From NCBI GenBank assembly GCA_964434285.1, contig CAYSUJ010000004.1, positions 18,732 through 82,731 of the forward strand: a DNA stretch of 64,000 nt. The letters are read 5' to 3'. This DNA is from an uncultured Candidatus Saccharibacteria bacterium. GTDB lineage: Bacteria; Patescibacteriota; Minisyncoccia; Phycocordibacterales; UBA2100. How positions within the stretch are numbered: the stretch's first letter is position 1; the number at the start of each line of letters is the position of its first letter. Position numbers and translations under genes: made by a program. A model generated the notes under the pieces. That model saw nothing but the letters and a program-made list of their open reading frames with translations. It did not search any database and was not told where the DNA came from. Positions 1,127-9,123 of this stretch are shown here, in pieces.

Positions 1127-1414
1127 CTATTTGTGGAGCACCTTCTTAACGAGAAGATAGCCGTCTTCCGTAGCCGGTGCTGCGTCAAGTAACGTCTTTG
1201 TATAGAGGCCTGATTCGTGGGGGTTTTCGTCATTACGCATCACATTACGCACCGGAGGAGTCTCGGGCGTCACTTCACCCGCAACCGACTGAATCGTCTC
1301 CACAAAAGCAAGAATGGCGGGAATTTCCTTCTCAAGCTGCTGGAGCTCTTCGGGAGAAACTTCAAGCCGCGCCAACTTCGCAAGAGCGACAACGTCAATT
1401 TGTGTCTGTGTCAT
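1127..1414 (-). CDS. gatC: aspartyl/glutamyl-tRNA amidotransferase subunit C
   Basis: The 95-aa ORF ends ...GYLLVKKVLHK, which resembles GatC, and lies directly upstream of gatA. Its ATG overlaps the reverse transcriptase stop in an ATGA arrangement. Confidence 0.8.
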   Translation of the reverse strand: MTQTQIDVVALAKLARLEVSPEELQQLEKEIPAILAFVETIQSVAGEVTPETPPVRNVMRNDENPHESGLYTKTLLDAAPATEDGYLLVKKVLHK

Positions 1415-2418
1415 TGGAGCATCCTAACAGATTCTCCCTGCGGTAGCATCTGTCGAAGTTTATATGCATTTCCGTGGCTCAAAAGTCCTCGATATGACTG
1501 TACGGTGGGATCGTCATGTTCTCGCCCGGCACACTGTTTCAACATTCGCCGCTTCGTCGTCGTGCGCAGCACGCGATAATCAGGAAAATGTACCCATCCA
1601 AGGAAATCGATACCGGACGCGAGCGTGCGGATTGAAATTTTGTTCGGATTCAGTTCGAGCTTGAGACGATCGCGTAGGAAATCTCGCATATTCGCGAATA
1701 TGCACACCAACGCCCTTCGATCACGCGAGAGAATAACGAAGTCATCAGCATAACGGATGTAGTATTTCGCTTTGAGTGCGTGCTTCACAAATTGATCAAA
1801 CTCGTTCATGTAGATGTTCACGAGGAGTTGTGAGGCAAGGTTCCCAAGCGGCAATCCCTTTCCCCGTGCTCCTGAATTGAAACTTACAATGACGCGTCTT
1901 ATGAGATCGACAATCCGCACATCTTCAATTCGATGCGTAAGAATGTTCGAAAGTATTGCCTGGTCAATACTCGCGAAAAACTTCCAAACGTCGCATTTGA
2001 GAACCCAACAGGTGCGCGTATGGTTGCGGGAGACTTTGTACGCACACGCGCGAAATCGATTCACCGCTCGATGTGTCCCCTTTCCTTTCCGGCATGAGTA
2101 CGAATCTGCAATGAACGTACGGTCAAAGAATGGATAGAGTTTGCGATACAGCGCATGATGTAGCAGTCGGTCGCGTACGGTGGCTTTGTGAATGTTCCTC
2201 GGTTTTGGATCAGAAATATTAAATGCGTGGTACGGACCATGCACATACGTGCACGCTACAAGATCACGATGCAGTGCAGGAATGTTCTCCATCAATCGAT
2301 ACTGAAACTCCTGCACATCCCTCTTTTTACGCTTCCCGCGTACGAATTCTTTCCACGCTTGCAGCAGGTTCTCGATGGAGATGATATCCTCGTAGGTATG
2401 GGTGAAAACAATGACCAC
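1411..2418 (-). CDS. DGR reverse transcriptase. The listed ORF runs to 2754, but its N-terminal ~110 aa look like non-coding antisense sequence, and the likely start is the GTG at about 2418.
   Basis: Motifs present: YIRYADDFVIL (YADD), LPLGNLASQLLVNIYMNEFD (the GNLxSQ motif typical of DGR reverse transcriptases) and SYSCRKGKGTHRA. An AGGGGG ribosome-binding site sits ahead of the in-frame GTG. Confidence 0.8.
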   Translation of the reverse strand: MVIVFTHTYEDIISIENLLQAWKEFVRGKRKKRDVQEFQYRLMENIPALHRDLVACTYVHGPYHAFNISDPKPRNIHKATVRDRLLHHALYRKLYPFFDRTFIADSYSCRKGKGTHRAVNRFRACAYKVSRNHTRTCWVLKCDVWKFFASIDQAILSNILTHRIEDVRIVDLIRRVIVSFNSGARGKGLPLGNLASQLLVNIYMNEFDQFVKHALKAKYYIRYADDFVILSRDRRALVCIFANMRDFLRDRLKLELNPNKISIRTLASGIDFLGWVHFPDYRVLRTTTKRRMLKQCAGREHDDPTVQSYRGLLSHGNAYKLRQMLPQGESVRMLQ

Positions 2419-2443
2419 ACATTGAAGTCTGCCCCCTGATTTT

Positions 2444-2803
2444 TTGCAACCGAAGCTTGTGCCTGTCGTATCCAAACTCAAGGATGCATATCTCATTTGG
2501 CAAAGATTTTTGCCGCATGTTGATAAGGCGCGACGGCAGACACTAGCACAACGTATAGATTCAGAATTGCTCGAAACGCTTGAACATTCGTTTCGTGCAG
2601 GATATGTGCGGGATGAACGAAAAATCTCTGCTCTTGAAACAGCGATCGGACGACTCGACCTCGCTAAATTTTTCCTTCTCATTGCATGGGAGATGTCGAT
2701 GCTCACCGACGCACAGTACCGGCATATTTCAGAACATCTTATTGAAGCGAGCAAAATGCTTTCCGGATGGAAGAGCTACATGGAAAAGAAAACTCTCCCG
2801 TGA
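2444..2803 (+). CDS. Avd-like (accessory variability determinant / four-helix-bundle, IVS-like) protein candidate
   Basis: 119-aa helical ORF. The segment ...ISALETAIGRLDLAKFFLLIAWEMSMLTDAQYRHISEHLIEASKMLSGWK resembles the C-terminal helices of Bordetella phage Avd (...LGSWI). There is no in-frame ATG near the start, so it would begin at TTG or GTG. It lies on the strand opposite the TR and the reverse transcriptase. Confidence 0.4.
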   Translation: MQPKLVPVVSKLKDAYLIWQRFLPHVDKARRQTLAQRIDSELLETLEHSFRAGYVRDERKISALETAIGRLDLAKFFLLIAWEMSMLTDAQYRHISEHLIEASKMLSGWKSYMEKKTLP

Positions 2804-2929: not shown

Positions 2930-3160
2930 ATGTACTCTGTGCCATCCGTGCCACCGCCTTTTGAATACTCTCAAGGTTGAATCTGATGCGAAGTCGTTAA
3001 CTCCCTAATGCAGAGCACCAACTCTCTTCTTTTTTGAAGAAGTGCGAACCTCGCCATCTCAAGCCTAAAAAGAAAGACCGTAGATGCCAGCGTGTTCAAC
3101 ATAACGATACCCCGCATCTCCACTCAAGGAAATGCGGGGTACAGGACAAGTAACAAAGGG

Positions 3161-3861
3161 TCAGAGGGTCACAGTGTCCGAGTTACGGAGGAGGAGCCGA
3201 GCGTCGGCGTCCCACCGACGGTCGCGGCCGAGCCTGCCGACGTAGGCGCTCCACCCGCGGTCGCCCCGAACGAAGCCGAGAACCGAGACGCTGCCATTCA
3301 CATCCTCAACGAATGCGAAGTTGGCATAGCCGTCAGTACGCAAGCCGACTTCTTCACCCGATTCCTACCGCTCGACGAGCGCTTCGGCTTCCGAGAGTGC
3401 GAGCGTGAGCCCGCGCCCCCGCAGTCGTGCAACAATCTCATCGTCAGCTGTACCGGGCACAGCCTGTACGGCCGCGAGCGCCATCTCCCGGAAGGTCGTG
3501 CTTCCGGATTCTGGAGCTGGTAGATCCCGACCGATTCGGTCGCGTTCGCGGTCTGCTGAGCGAGAAGCCAGCGATCGATGTCGGGATGGCGATATCCCCA
3601 AAGCGTGCCAGTGAAGCAATCCCGGGTTTTCTTGGGCTTTGCGCCGGTGAAGATCGCCTTTTTGTGGAAGACGAGAGTCGGACGCATTCGCTTTTCAGCG
3701 GACACCGAAAGTGCCTCTCGCAACGCTGTGGCCAGGGCTTTTCCATTGTTCGCCCAATGCAGGGCGACGTCAGGCTCGATATCGCGCGGCAACGCCTTTA
3801 TTACGGCGCCGGCGAATTCGGAAAACTGCCCAACGGACAAGGCTGTTCCATGTTTAGACAT
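3161..3861 (-). pseudogene. DGR target (variable) protein gene, apparently frame-disrupted
   Basis: From the ATG at 3861 (ribosome-binding site GAAAGGAA), a well-behaved frame reads MSKHGTALSVGQFSEFAGAVIKALPRD... but decays after about aa 110. A second frame becomes protein-like (...REMALAAVQAVPGTADDEIVARLRGRGLTLALSEAEALVER) and is separated by one in-frame TAG at 3365-3367 from the VR-containing C-terminal frame, which ends at 3161. Confidence 0.5.
3180..3292 (-). repeat. DGR variable repeat (VR)
   Basis: Aligns to the TR with 19 mismatches in 113 bp. Eighteen of these are at TR-adenine positions (minus strand) and one is a synonymous C/T. It encodes VLGFVRGDRGWSAYVGRLGRDRRWDADARLLLRNS. Confidence 0.8.
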
Positions 3862-3924
3862 GGCTGTTCCTTTCAAGGTTCACTTCCCAGCCTGATGCCG
3901 GAGAAGGGCACTATTATATAACGT

Positions 3925-5968: not shown

Positions 5969-6445
5969 CTAGTAGGAGAGTTCGACGGAGCGCTGGAGAG
6001 CCCGGTTCGACACATCAATTTCGGAGCAGGCCGTCGAAAAACCATCGGCCTCAATGACTGTAGATCCATTAATCGTGTCTTTTTCAACAGCCACACGTGC
6101 ACATAAACCATTTGGCTCATACTCAAAGGACATGGTATAGACGGGTTGCCCTGGCGGCGGCGTTGCTGGCGTGATTGAAAGTGCGTCGCCATCACACGTC
6201 GGAGTCCCCCCTGGCGAGGTCGAGCTAAAGTACCCAAAACGCATATCCCAGTACAGCGCACATTCCGCTGCAGAATCGGCAACATAAAACGCGTACTGTG
6301 AACTACGCCCGAGCGACGAGAGAATAATCTGTTTTTGAGCAATGGAGAATACTGATATACCAAGCGCGAGCACGAGGGATGCAACGAGTGCAGCGAGCAG
6401 AATGGTAAATCCGCGGTTACTCTGTTCCCGTAGAGAATGGCTCAT
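5969..6445 (-). CDS. pseudopilin-like protein (N-terminal hydrophobic pilin-type helix)
   Basis: N-terminus NRGFTILLAALVASLVLALGISVF. Overlaps the next pilin-like gene by 4 bp. Confidence 0.45.
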   Translation of the reverse strand: MSHSLREQSNRGFTILLAALVASLVLALGISVFSIAQKQIILSSLGRSSQYAFYVADSAAECALYWDMRFGYFSSTSPGGTPTCDGDALSITPATPPPGQPVYTMSFEYEPNGLCARVAVEKDTINGSTVIEADGFSTACSEIDVSNRALQRSVELSY

Positions 6446-7065
6446 ACATTGTCATCGACCCATCGATAGAGATTTTCATAAATCGTGATTGTCCGTGGCT
6501 GCGACGTTCCTGCGTCCCACGAAATTGTAACCTCGATACGAATTTCATCTTGCGTGCCAGGAACGTAGGCAACATTCACGGTGCGACGATATGGCGAGTC
6601 ATCCCACCCGGCTTCATATCCGTACAATTCGCCATTTGTCTGGAGTAGCGGACACTGACCCGAGCACGTGGTAATCACGTTATTCCGAGTATCGATAACA
6701 AATGGTGTGCCAATCGGAATCCCGCACAGCAGTGTAACGGGAGAGCAACTTGCGTCCGGACTACTGAGCGATATGCGCAGAACATTACCATCACGAATCG
6801 CCCGAACCGTCTCTATTGCTTCTTGTGCTAGATTAAATGCGATTACCTGATCGCGCGCATAGTATGACGCAGAGAGTGATTGCATGGTGAGCGACATAGG
6901 CGCCACAATGGCAACAGTCAGAATAACGATGGCAACCATTGTCTCGATGAGGGTCATTCCATGAGTAGCTTTCAGCTGTGGGCTGCCAGCTTTCAGGAAA
7001 TATAAAAAGAAACCCCTGATCGCATCCTGGAAGGTGGAAGCTGGACACTGGGAGCTATTTTTCAT
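6442..7065 (-). CDS. type IV pilin-like / pseudopilin
   Basis: Prepilin motif G|MTLIETMVAIVILTVAIV. Confidence 0.55.
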   Translation of the reverse strand: MKNSSQCPASTFQDAIRGFFLYFLKAGSPQLKATHGMTLIETMVAIVILTVAIVAPMSLTMQSLSASYYARDQVIAFNLAQEAIETVRAIRDGNVLRISLSSPDASCSPVTLLCGIPIGTPFVIDTRNNVITTCSGQCPLLQTNGELYGYEAGWDDSPYRRTVNVAYVPGTQDEIRIEVTISWDAGTSQPRTITIYENLYRWVDDNV

Positions 7066-7748
7066 ATATCAAGTATGCGCTGAACCGCCGTCGCCTGAAT
7101 GTAAAAAGATGTTTGATGCCGCACCTCCTCCCCTCCCGCAACCCCCTTAATCACGATCACCACCTTGGGCTGCGTTGTATCCTGAGGCGTTGAGCCGACC
7201 ACGTACATCTGCATTTCTGTGATTTCCACTTCCGGCGCCGTCACCGGCAACGACGTCGCACCCCCATTCTGAGAACGATACAGTCGTGATCGGCCCTGCG
7301 CATCGTTTGCTATGCTGTAGACTGTGCGTTCAGTTTGCGCATTTGGGTTCGACCCGTGCGGCGCGAATGAAAACATGGCGGGCACCGACGTGACTGGTGA
7401 AATACCCTGCGGACAATCACCCCACGTTGGCGCCTGCGGTATGGAACTTCCTCCACAGCGGTAGTGTGATCCCATGCGTATGGCGCGCACCATGCTGTCC
7501 AGTGAGATATTGAGATTATTCATCACACTCTCGAGCGTCCGTGCCTTCCGGTTTGCATCCACCAGCGAAAGCAGCGCACCTACCGAAACGAGCATGATAA
7601 CCGCGAACAGCGATATAGAAACCACCATCTCAACGAGCGTGAAGCCGCGAGAACAAGCTGACCGTTGACCGTTGGCAATTGGCAGAAAACCGAAAAGACA
7701 TTCTTTGCATTTTTGTAAACGATGGATTGTTAGCTGTAGATTGTTCAT
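7062..7748 (-). CDS. type IV pilin-like / pseudopilin
   Basis: Prepilin motif SRG|FTLVEMVVSISLFAVIML. Confidence 0.55.
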   Translation of the reverse strand: MNNLQLTIHRLQKCKECLFGFLPIANGQRSACSRGFTLVEMVVSISLFAVIMLVSVGALLSLVDANRKARTLESVMNNLNISLDSMVRAIRMGSHYRCGGSSIPQAPTWGDCPQGISPVTSVPAMFSFAPHGSNPNAQTERTVYSIANDAQGRSRLYRSQNGGATSLPVTAPEVEITEMQMYVVGSTPQDTTQPKVVIVIKGVAGGEEVRHQTSFYIQATAVQRILDI

Positions 7749-7750
7749 AC

Positions 7751-8344
7751 CTACTGCACCGATATCTGTCCCGATGCCTCAACAACTACTTCAGCGCGCG
7801 TACCTCGCGGAGACTCAATTATAATGCGTGCACGATCATCGGTAATCGGCCCCGCCGTGCGACGAATGAGCGCATCCGGCTCTGGACGATAAAACAAAAT
7901 GTTAAGTGAGGGGAGGCCGCACGTTTCTATGGACGTCGAAGCATTGCGTGCGCACACGTCCACCACACGATATCCGGCCGCAAGCGTCATGGTTCGAACC
8001 GACTCGCCCGGATCGTAAATCCCGTTTGCAATGCTGTCACCATAGAGTTGATATACTGTTTGAGTATCTTGCGCTGAAGGAGCGAAGTACATGCCATATC
8101 CCACGTCGAAATTTGTTCCACTGAATCGGCGCACTGCAATGCCATACACCTGTGCTTCACGAACAGTGAGCGCCATCTCATGTGCAAGATTTTGAAGTAC
8201 GACACGGTTTCCAAACTGCGTATTCGCCGAAAGTACAATCGCCGAGAGCACCATGAATATCCCCGACACGACCAAGAGTTCAATCAATGTAAAAGCCCTA
8301 GAAACGTGAGGAGCGGTGTGTAGGCGTAAAAGAGTGCGAACCAT
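7751..8344 (-). CDS. type IV pilin-like / pseudopilin (GspH/FimT-like)
   Basis: Prepilin motif RA|FTLIELLVVSGIFMVL. Confidence 0.55.
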   Translation of the reverse strand: MVRTLLRLHTAPHVSRAFTLIELLVVSGIFMVLSAIVLSANTQFGNRVVLQNLAHEMALTVREAQVYGIAVRRFSGTNFDVGYGMYFAPSAQDTQTVYQLYGDSIANGIYDPGESVRTMTLAAGYRVVDVCARNASTSIETCGLPSLNILFYRPEPDALIRRTAGPITDDRARIIIESPRGTRAEVVVEASGQISVQ

Positions 8345-9123
8345 ATAAGCAGAGTGCCAACGATAAGAAAAGGACCGAACGGCACTTCGCTTTTCATTGT
8401 AACCTTCGCCCGTGGTTCAACTGAGTACTGTGTGGGGGTAACGATAGCGCGAAACTTCGCTGCGTACGGCGATGAATTGAACACCAATGCGAGTCCTACA
8501 ACGGCACCAATCACAAATGCATACAAAAGTGCTAGAAATCCGTACGGTCCAAGTAAAAATCCCATACCCAGTGAAAATTTCACATCTCCAAAACCCATCC
8601 ATGCGCCTCGCGAAAACAGATGCAGCATGAAGAGCGGTACAGCAACGGCAACCCCCCACCCCACACCAATCACATACATACTTAATGGCGCGCCCACCTC
8701 GGCAAGCCACAGGAAGGTGAATGCGAGCGAAAGCGCGTTCCATGTCCACACCCAAGCATTCGGCATGAGCATTGTGTAAAAGTCATAAACCGCAATAGCA
8801 ACCCAGAGCACTACTATTGCACATGCGATAAGTTTAAGGTGGAGAGGAATAAATAATCCGCCCACGAAATAAAACCCAAGACCCACAGCAAGCTCGACGA
8901 GCGGGTATTGAGGCGATATCGGAGCCGCGCACATGCGACACCGCGCCCGCAAACAAACCCATGAAAGAACCGGCACAAGGTCGCGTGGTTTGAGGGTTGC
9001 ATTACACGAAGGGCACGCACTCCTCCCCCAGAGTGCCCCTACCCCATCCCGGAGAATAAGTACGTTCGTAAAACTTCCTACAATCAAGCCGAGAAGAAAC
9101 CAAACGATTGCAAACTCGAACAT
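8284..9123 (-). CDS. pilD: prepilin peptidase (A24 family)
   Basis: Polytopic membrane protein with a CPSC...CRMC zinc motif, plus the GFGDVKF and GMGF regions. Confidence 0.8.
   Translation of the reverse strand: MFEFAIVWFLLGLIVGSFTNVLILRDGVGALWGRSACPSCNATLKPRDLVPVLSWVCLRARCRMCAAPISPQYPLVELAVGLGFYFVGGLFIPLHLKLIACAIVVLWVAIAVYDFYTMLMPNAWVWTWNALSLAFTFLWLAEVGAPLSMYVIGVGWGVAVAVPLFMLHLFSRGAWMGFGDVKFSLGMGFLLGPYGFLALLYAFVIGAVVGLALVFNSSPYAAKFRAIVTPTQYSVEPRAKVTMKSEVPFGPFLIVGTLLIWFALFYAYTPLLTFLGLLH

Follow-up and report, generated by a model that had tools for sequence, protein, structure and literature searches.

The window, by which is meant the whole 64-kb stretch of DNA that was analysed, carries a cassette of a diversity-generating retroelement (DGR). 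Read along the minus strand, its parts are a target gene (3861 to 3161) with a variable region (VR, 3292 to 3180) at the C-terminal end of its frame, a GC-rich hairpin (3142 to 3108), a template repeat (TR, 2929 to 2817) and the gene of a DGR reverse transcriptase (RT, 2418 to 1411). An avd-like accessory gene lies between the TR and the RT gene on the opposite, plus strand (2444 to 2803).

The RT gene is intact. Its 335-aa product combines a Pfam RVT_1 domain (E = 3.5e-25) with the motifs LGNLASQ and YADD, that is, with the [LI]GxxxSQ and YxDD signatures by which a DGR-type RT is recognised, and shares 66% identity along its full length with the RT from an intact cassette in a Kaiserbacteria MAG (locus L004). 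The product of avd is an Avd-like four-helix protein, whose full-length identity with the Avd from the same Kaiserbacteria cassette is 56%; its profile matches (NCBIfam DivGenRetAVD, E = 4e-12; Pfam bAvd, E = 3e-6) lie below the curated cut-offs, the former scoring 46 bits against a cut-off of 80 bits. Two further marks of DGR membership, an Avd and a TR/VR pair differing at adenines, are present. The L004 cassette has the same layout as that of the window, with a target of 256 aa, a VR/TR pair of 113 nt, an avd that is likewise inverted, and an RT. The inverted position of avd recurs in all related loci in which an avd was matched, which make up 33 locus entries including a few duplicates. 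A full-text literature search on inverted avd genes in Parcubacteria returned irrelevant papers only.

The two genes are closely set, the start of avd being only about 25-40 nt from that of the RT gene, and a transcript running from the TR to the RT would be antisense to avd. Their starts are variously called. Gene callers begin avd at 2459, and the RT measures 293 aa in one Logan gene call and 335 aa in another, which makes it an annotation trap; the mechanical RT ORF (1411-2754, minus strand) is 447 aa long, as it begins at a TTG at 2754 and runs across the avd antisense for some 110 codons upstream of the true start (about 2418).

The VR (3180-3292) and the TR (2817-2929), both on the minus strand and 113 nt long, are repeats of each other, the TR translating to VSVLNFNRNDRRWNAYVNRLDNDNRWNADNRLLLRNS. 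The TR is rich in AAC and AAT codons, and no substitution of an A in it is able to create a stop codon. The two copies differ at 19 positions, 18 of which fall on TR adenines (18 of the 28 A's present), as 14 A>G, 3 A>C and 1 A>T; the same adenine-specific pattern occurs in six related cassettes. An excess of A>G had been considered as a sign of unselected mutagenesis and was dropped, the proportion being 14/18 in the window and 52/97 in the six related cassettes (Fisher p = 0.07). The remaining mismatch, a C in the TR (2822) facing a T in the VR (3185), lies 6 nt from the 3' end of the repeat, and single non-A differences lie one or two bases away from this position in L004 and in a further locus, L011. 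Judging from its position, it looks like a boundary difference of the IMH/IMH* type and not like decay. A scan of the 64-kb window with the TR, tolerating changes at A positions, returned the known VR and no second one.

About 20 nt past the stop of the target frame stands the conserved hairpin GTACCCCGCATTTCC...GGAGATGCGGGGTA (3108-3142, minus strand). A strong hairpin at this place (in the window GTACCCCGC...GCGGGGTA, 3142-3108) is predicted in nine of nine family loci, namely the window, L003, L004, L005, L009-L011, L015 and L016; the sequence of its inner stem varies from locus to locus and its pairing is kept. It is followed on the 3' side by the box TGAACACGCTGGCATC (about 3098-3083, minus strand), which is found in most of the nine loci examined. 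Family members that have no adjacent RT carry the hairpin as well (L003 and L005 were checked). It could be either a DGR target-recognition hairpin or a terminator.

The target gene itself cannot be read through in one frame. A Shine-Dalgarno-like motif, GAAAGGAA, precedes the ATG at 3861 by 5 nt, and a three-frame translation of the minus strand gives, from this ATG, a frame that reads MSKHGTALSVGQF...VGIYQLQNPEA. Past IYQLQNPEA the same frame turns into junk rich in R, S and P that runs down to a TGA at 3300-3298, the whole ORF measuring 187 aa (192 aa if counted from a TTG at 3876). A second frame of the minus strand reads TTFREMALAAVQAVPGTADDEIVARLRGRGLTLALSEAEALVER, then a TAG at 3367-3365, then ESGEEVGLRTDGYANFAFVEDVNGSVSVLGF...RLLLRNSDTVTL, and crosses the VR to a TGA at 3163-3161. 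The protein fits its own family up to codon 120 (3504-3502) and then again, in the other frame, from 3499 onwards; the first segment, codons 1-120 in the original frame (MSKHGT...YQLQNPE, 3502-3861), shares its MSKHGT start with the homologues P0001 and P0002. Downstream of the TAG the sole start codon is a TTG at 3343, which opens an ORF of 60 aa.

Codon-by-codon comparison with related loci places the two lesions to the base. The first is a frameshift at 3501-3500, where GC is what remains of the codon of Gly121 after one G of a GGC or GGA was lost. The window reads AAT CCG GAA G-C ACG ACC TTC at this place, L005 reads AAC CCG GAA GGC ACC ACC CTC, L004 reads CCG AAA GGC ACC GCC TTC and L003 reads CCT AAA GGA ACC ACC TTT. 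The deletion sits in a GG dinucleotide and in no homopolymer run. The second lesion is the in-frame TAG (3367-3365), which occupies the codon of a near-invariant glutamine of the VERQE motif, Gln166, and is one C-to-T change away from CAG: the window has CGG TAG GAA where L003 and L004 have AGG CAG followed by GAG or GAA. The glutamine is kept in at least 90% of 32 sequences, and the L005 codon at this site is GAG. Both lesions lie upstream of the VR and outside it, at distances of 208 nt and 73 nt. With the deletion and the TAG in place, no translatable target ORF contains the VR.

To avoid circularity, intact homologues were also used as tblastn queries on the window. With P0001, residues 1-121 matched 3861-3499 and residues 122-233 matched 3499-3164, with a stop symbol facing Gln166 and a combined E-value of 1e-75; P0002, P0009 and P0017 gave the same frame junction. 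The sequence-only reading of this DNA had described a frame change and an in-frame TAG in the DGR target, and three-frame translation, codon comparison and tblastn agree that both are real. It had placed the frame change somewhere between 3490 and 3540, a range that includes the site now found, 3499-3502. It had also described the VR frame as following directly on the TAG at 3367-3365, apart from the second frame before the TAG; these two form one single frame.

The repaired protein is 233 aa long and homologues of about 232 aa align with it end to end. A protein search with the joined frames, the TAG being dropped, returned 35 proteins (E 6e-85 to 5e-12), most of them of 226-235 aa and several covering 98-100% of the query; the named sources are MAGs of Candidatus Kaiserbacteria, Minisyncoccia and the Patescibacteria group. 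The sole protein 100% identical to the joined query is the truncated 187-aa ORF itself (P0003). A search of 5.8 billion clustered proteins gave no intact allele of the target, the next best match being 62% identical. The family consensus reads YQLQNP-x-G-TTFREMA over the site of the frame change and LVERQExGE over that of the stop. At 61 columns conserved in at least 85% of the family, the repaired protein departs from the majority three times (L65F, D92H, T155A), and intact family members depart between 0 and 13 times at the same columns. By this count, the repaired protein lies within the range of intact members and bears no sign of prolonged neutral decay.

The fold of the family was approached through its closest intact homologue, P0001, by AlphaFold2 with an alignment of 31 sequences. 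The model, which is a confident one (mean pLDDT 87.6, pTM 0.72), shows an N-terminal three-helix region followed by an alpha/beta domain that begins near residue 60 and extends to the C-terminus, and a Foldseek search of it against the PDB gave no match below E 0.3. On the strength of the model, the family is taken as a divergent DGR target of the C-type-lectin/FGE fold, as expected for DGRs, and the VR as located at the C-terminus of a variable protein with a predicted C-type-lectin fold. By fold, the closest known systems are TvpA of Treponema denticola (PDB 2Y3C), Mtd (1YU0) and other DGR variable proteins of the C-type-lectin/FGE fold. Mapped on the model, the deletion at codon 121 is predicted to leave the translated product without about two-thirds of the alpha/beta domain.

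Related loci were sought in 185,579 species-representative genomes, which yielded 15 (in Kaiserbacteria, Adlerbacteria, Giovannonibacteria, Paceibacterota and other Patescibacteria), and in JGI/ENA metagenome contigs, which yielded 40 more. Neither the genome contigs nor the metagenome contigs scanned held a locus of the same species, the best identity being 63%. Whether orthologous loci have a continuous ORF had been named as a check by the sequence-only reading, and they do: the relatives encode one continuous protein of about 232 aa. In every other related locus (about 55-60) the target forms a single tblastn segment in a single frame, and two frames occur only in the window and in two twin contigs. 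Neither of the window's lesions, nor any frame change at all, was found in the other related loci scanned.

Stop symbols in the tblastn matches of L019, L020/L062 and L051 were considered as lesions and set aside, being natural stop codons located a few codons earlier. A different case is L037 (Ga0209542_10070570, about 3040-3080), in which two in-frame TGA codons fall within the VR (SVSVA*FYRGGR*WSVS) and the normal stop of the gene is also a TGA. The gene may be another target turned pseudogene, or else the consensus may be at fault in this hypervariable stretch.

The window's version of the gene is reproduced elsewhere. The 187-aa ORF is present on two per-run Logan contigs, from SRR14932609 (32,963 nt) and SRR14932608 (6,565 nt), which are 100% identical to the window across 8,861 nt and 4,027 nt, respectively; the samples behind the two runs may be identical or related, and the deposited MAG may itself have been built from these runs, so that the assemblies are independent only in part. 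The two lesions, the VR, the TR, avd and the RT all fall within each of these spans, and the 32,963-nt contig covers the entire cassette. The VR is identical in the assembled contigs of the two runs, which tells against strong heterogeneity in it.

Taken together, the two lesions, their absence in the relatives, their reproduction in the per-run assemblies and the use of TAG as a standard stop in this genome segment make it quite probable that the target is a genuine and evolutionarily recent pseudogene of a variable-protein gene belonging to a Patescibacteria-type DGR. A decayed target was one of three explanations put forward from the sequence alone, beside sequence error and recoding, and it is the one that best fits the single frame of the relatives, the two assemblies that repeat the window and the behaviour of TAG as a normal stop. 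The lesions would then be fixed in the population, the gene non-functional and the event recent.

In such a course of events, the loss of a G at Gly121 (3501-3500) and the change of CAG to TAG at Gln166 (3367-3365) would be two independent point lesions upstream of the VR, either of which alone would block translation of the C-type-lectin-like domain and the VR. The expected product would consist of 120 native residues and an out-of-frame tail of 67 residues. Since the rest of the cassette (VR, hairpin, TR, inverted avd and RT) is intact, mutagenic homing into the dead gene could still occur, and the VR/TR differences confined to adenines may reflect either homing shortly before the inactivation or homing that continued after it. 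That the DGR remains active and goes on rewriting the VR of an untranslatable gene is a possibility to which I give little weight, if more than a token one. The clean TR/VR pattern had earlier been read as evidence of recent diversification. Recent diversification is compatible with the data, the protein being family-like outside the lesions; an adenine-only VR is nevertheless no argument for a functional gene, because mutagenic homing needs no translation of the target.

Two features of the pseudogene call for comment. Two lesions within 135 nt of an otherwise conserved gene are slightly unusual for a very young pseudogene. Moreover, an intact RT and Avd beside a dead local target would mean either that the event is recent or that there are other targets beyond the 64-kb window. 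It could be that the genome of the window holds another target outside it. A second target in the same samples was sought among the Logan-derived relatives, and the candidates P0004, P0006 and P0014 were rejected as belonging to other runs.

An alternative is that the lesions are real but polymorphic, the knocked-out target being dominant and intact alleles a minority, be it through adaptive loss of a surface or ligand-binding protein or through strain heterogeneity. Populations commonly contain loss-of-function alleles of exposed proteins, and a conserved gene within an intact cassette looks as if selection had ended only recently, or in some cells. Each per-run assembly, however, is a single unbranched path that carries the lesions, and neither a contig nor a protein of an intact allele is on record. 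A second allele has given no positive sign of itself, and this reading is considered unlikely.

It is also conceivable that the true genome has an intact 233-aa gene, and that the missing G and the T of the TAG are errors of sequencing, assembly or consensus. Metagenome MAGs do carry consensus errors, loci adjacent to hypervariable ones can assemble poorly, and the two in-frame TGA codons in the VR of L037 could be noise of a similar kind. Yet the deposited contig and the two Logan contigs agree base for base, and the 100% identity of both per-run assemblies with the window over the gene makes an assembler artefact unlikely. Nor should heterogeneity of the VR disturb the assembly at the lesions, since these lie well outside it, at the distances given above. 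The deletion falls in a dinucleotide and not in a homopolymer. A C>T substitution is atypical of assemblers, and no protein of an intact allele has been called from any assembly in the database. An artefact is thus held to be very unlikely.

The least credible of the three is programmed recoding, in which a -1 frameshift near 3500, together with read-through of the UAG or its reassignment (to Gln), would yield the full-length protein. The TAG does fall exactly on a conserved glutamine, and the frame change required is indeed -1; glutamine is inserted by near-cognate read-through as well as in known codes in which TAG is reassigned. A CAG>TAG transition, too, would put the TAG on a Gln codon. 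Against recoding stand the stop codons of the window, where among 55 non-overlapping ORFs of 150 aa or more 21 end in TAA, 18 in TGA and 16 in TAG, the last including ORFs of 932, 637 and 518 aa, with the downstream genes closely packed. ARAGORN found no tRNA gene, hence no suppressor tRNA, within the 64-kb window; stop-codon usage and the lack of tRNAs in the window led to the rejection of a TAG reassignment. Around the shift site (AAT CCG GAA GCA CGA) there is no slippery heptamer, the sequence CAG AAT CCG GAA GCA CGA CCT holding none of the form X XXY YYZ. Neither interruption occurs in the about 55 related loci, each of them in a single frame; in the three loci compared codon by codon, the first site encodes Gly and the second Gln or Glu. 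Recoding would moreover have to take place twice, in two separate events. Recoding is therefore unsupported, as TAG is a common stop, a slippery site is lacking and the lesions are not conserved, and its probability is regarded as close to nil. That the split gene works as two polypeptides was rejected on size, the 60 aa after the TAG (from the TTG at 3343) being too short for the lectin-like domain of about 170 residues seen in the model.

With regard to known DGRs, the pseudogene belongs to an element of the kind described from Patescibacteria (CPR), with which it shares a chromosomal location and a Patescibacteria-like gene context. DGRs of CPR form their own clade, DGR clade 2, and their targets are usually without recognisable domains (Roux et al. 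2021, PMC8144416). According to Wu et al. [quoted passage not shown] The order found in the window, target-TR-(inverted avd)-RT, probably corresponds to the B3 architecture of CPR (Wu et al. 2018, PMC5758913). Like CPR targets as they are portrayed there and elsewhere (PMC8144416, PMC5758913), the target is small, has a C-terminal VR and lacks any Pfam or transmembrane domain; unlike them, it has its reading frame interrupted at two places before the VR.

The DGR of the Bordetella phage BPP-1 (mtd-avd-TR-brt) has the same parts: its target bears the VR at the C-terminus, a GC-rich hairpin comes next, and a TR, an Avd and an RT showing both SQ and YADD motifs complete the set. It shows the same adenine-specific TR/VR differences. 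It differs from the window, in which TR and RT are about 400 nt apart and enclose an avd of opposite orientation; moreover, the element of the window is cellular and not phage-borne, and its target is presumably non-functional. The nearest precedent for an inactivated component is found in DGR RTs that are cut by nonsense mutations, frameshifts or IS insertions, the VR/TR differences still being restricted to adenines and the inactivation being judged recent (Schillinger et al. 2012, PMC3521204). A nonsense or frameshift knockout of a DGR component with an adenine-only VR/TR pair is common to both; there, however, the RT is broken, and here the target is broken with RT, Avd and TR intact, which makes the window its mirror case.

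As a pseudogene, then, the locus is an ordinary and recent one within a known kind of element. Its significance lies in that the cassette would score as a complete, active-looking DGR, though the only target in the window is untranslatable. Clean TR/VR patterns are not proof of a working DGR, which matters for annotation and for DGR surveys. If homing into the dead gene does take place, the VR (3292-3180) would document the raw adenine-mutagenesis spectrum of the RT, unfiltered by selection, and if turnover of the VR goes on, the locus would be a natural case in which mutagenic homing proceeds apart from any selection on the target. The by-products for work on Patescibacteria DGRs, none of them unexpected, are the divergent C-type-lectin-like fold (predicted), the universally inverted avd and the hairpin after the VR.

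Some observations on the family as a whole may be added. Intact target members without an RT, avd or TR in the fetched flanks are found at L003, L005-L007 and L063, the closest relatives included; these may be remote (trans-diversified) or orphan targets. At L049 (VFSW01064580.1), two tandem family copies (2161-2775 and 3211-3690) are followed by a TR-like segment and avd, which looks like a DGR with two adjacent targets. Lastly, prepilin peptidase and N-methyl pilin-like genes lie close to the target in the window, just beyond ligA (5969-9123, minus strand), and pilM, pilO and a T2SSE ATPase gene are located immediately downstream of the two closest full-length relatives, P0001 and P0004 (L003, 2151-6768; L063, 1239-4143). 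These type IV pilus neighbours may hint at a role of the variable protein in the pilus or at the cell surface.
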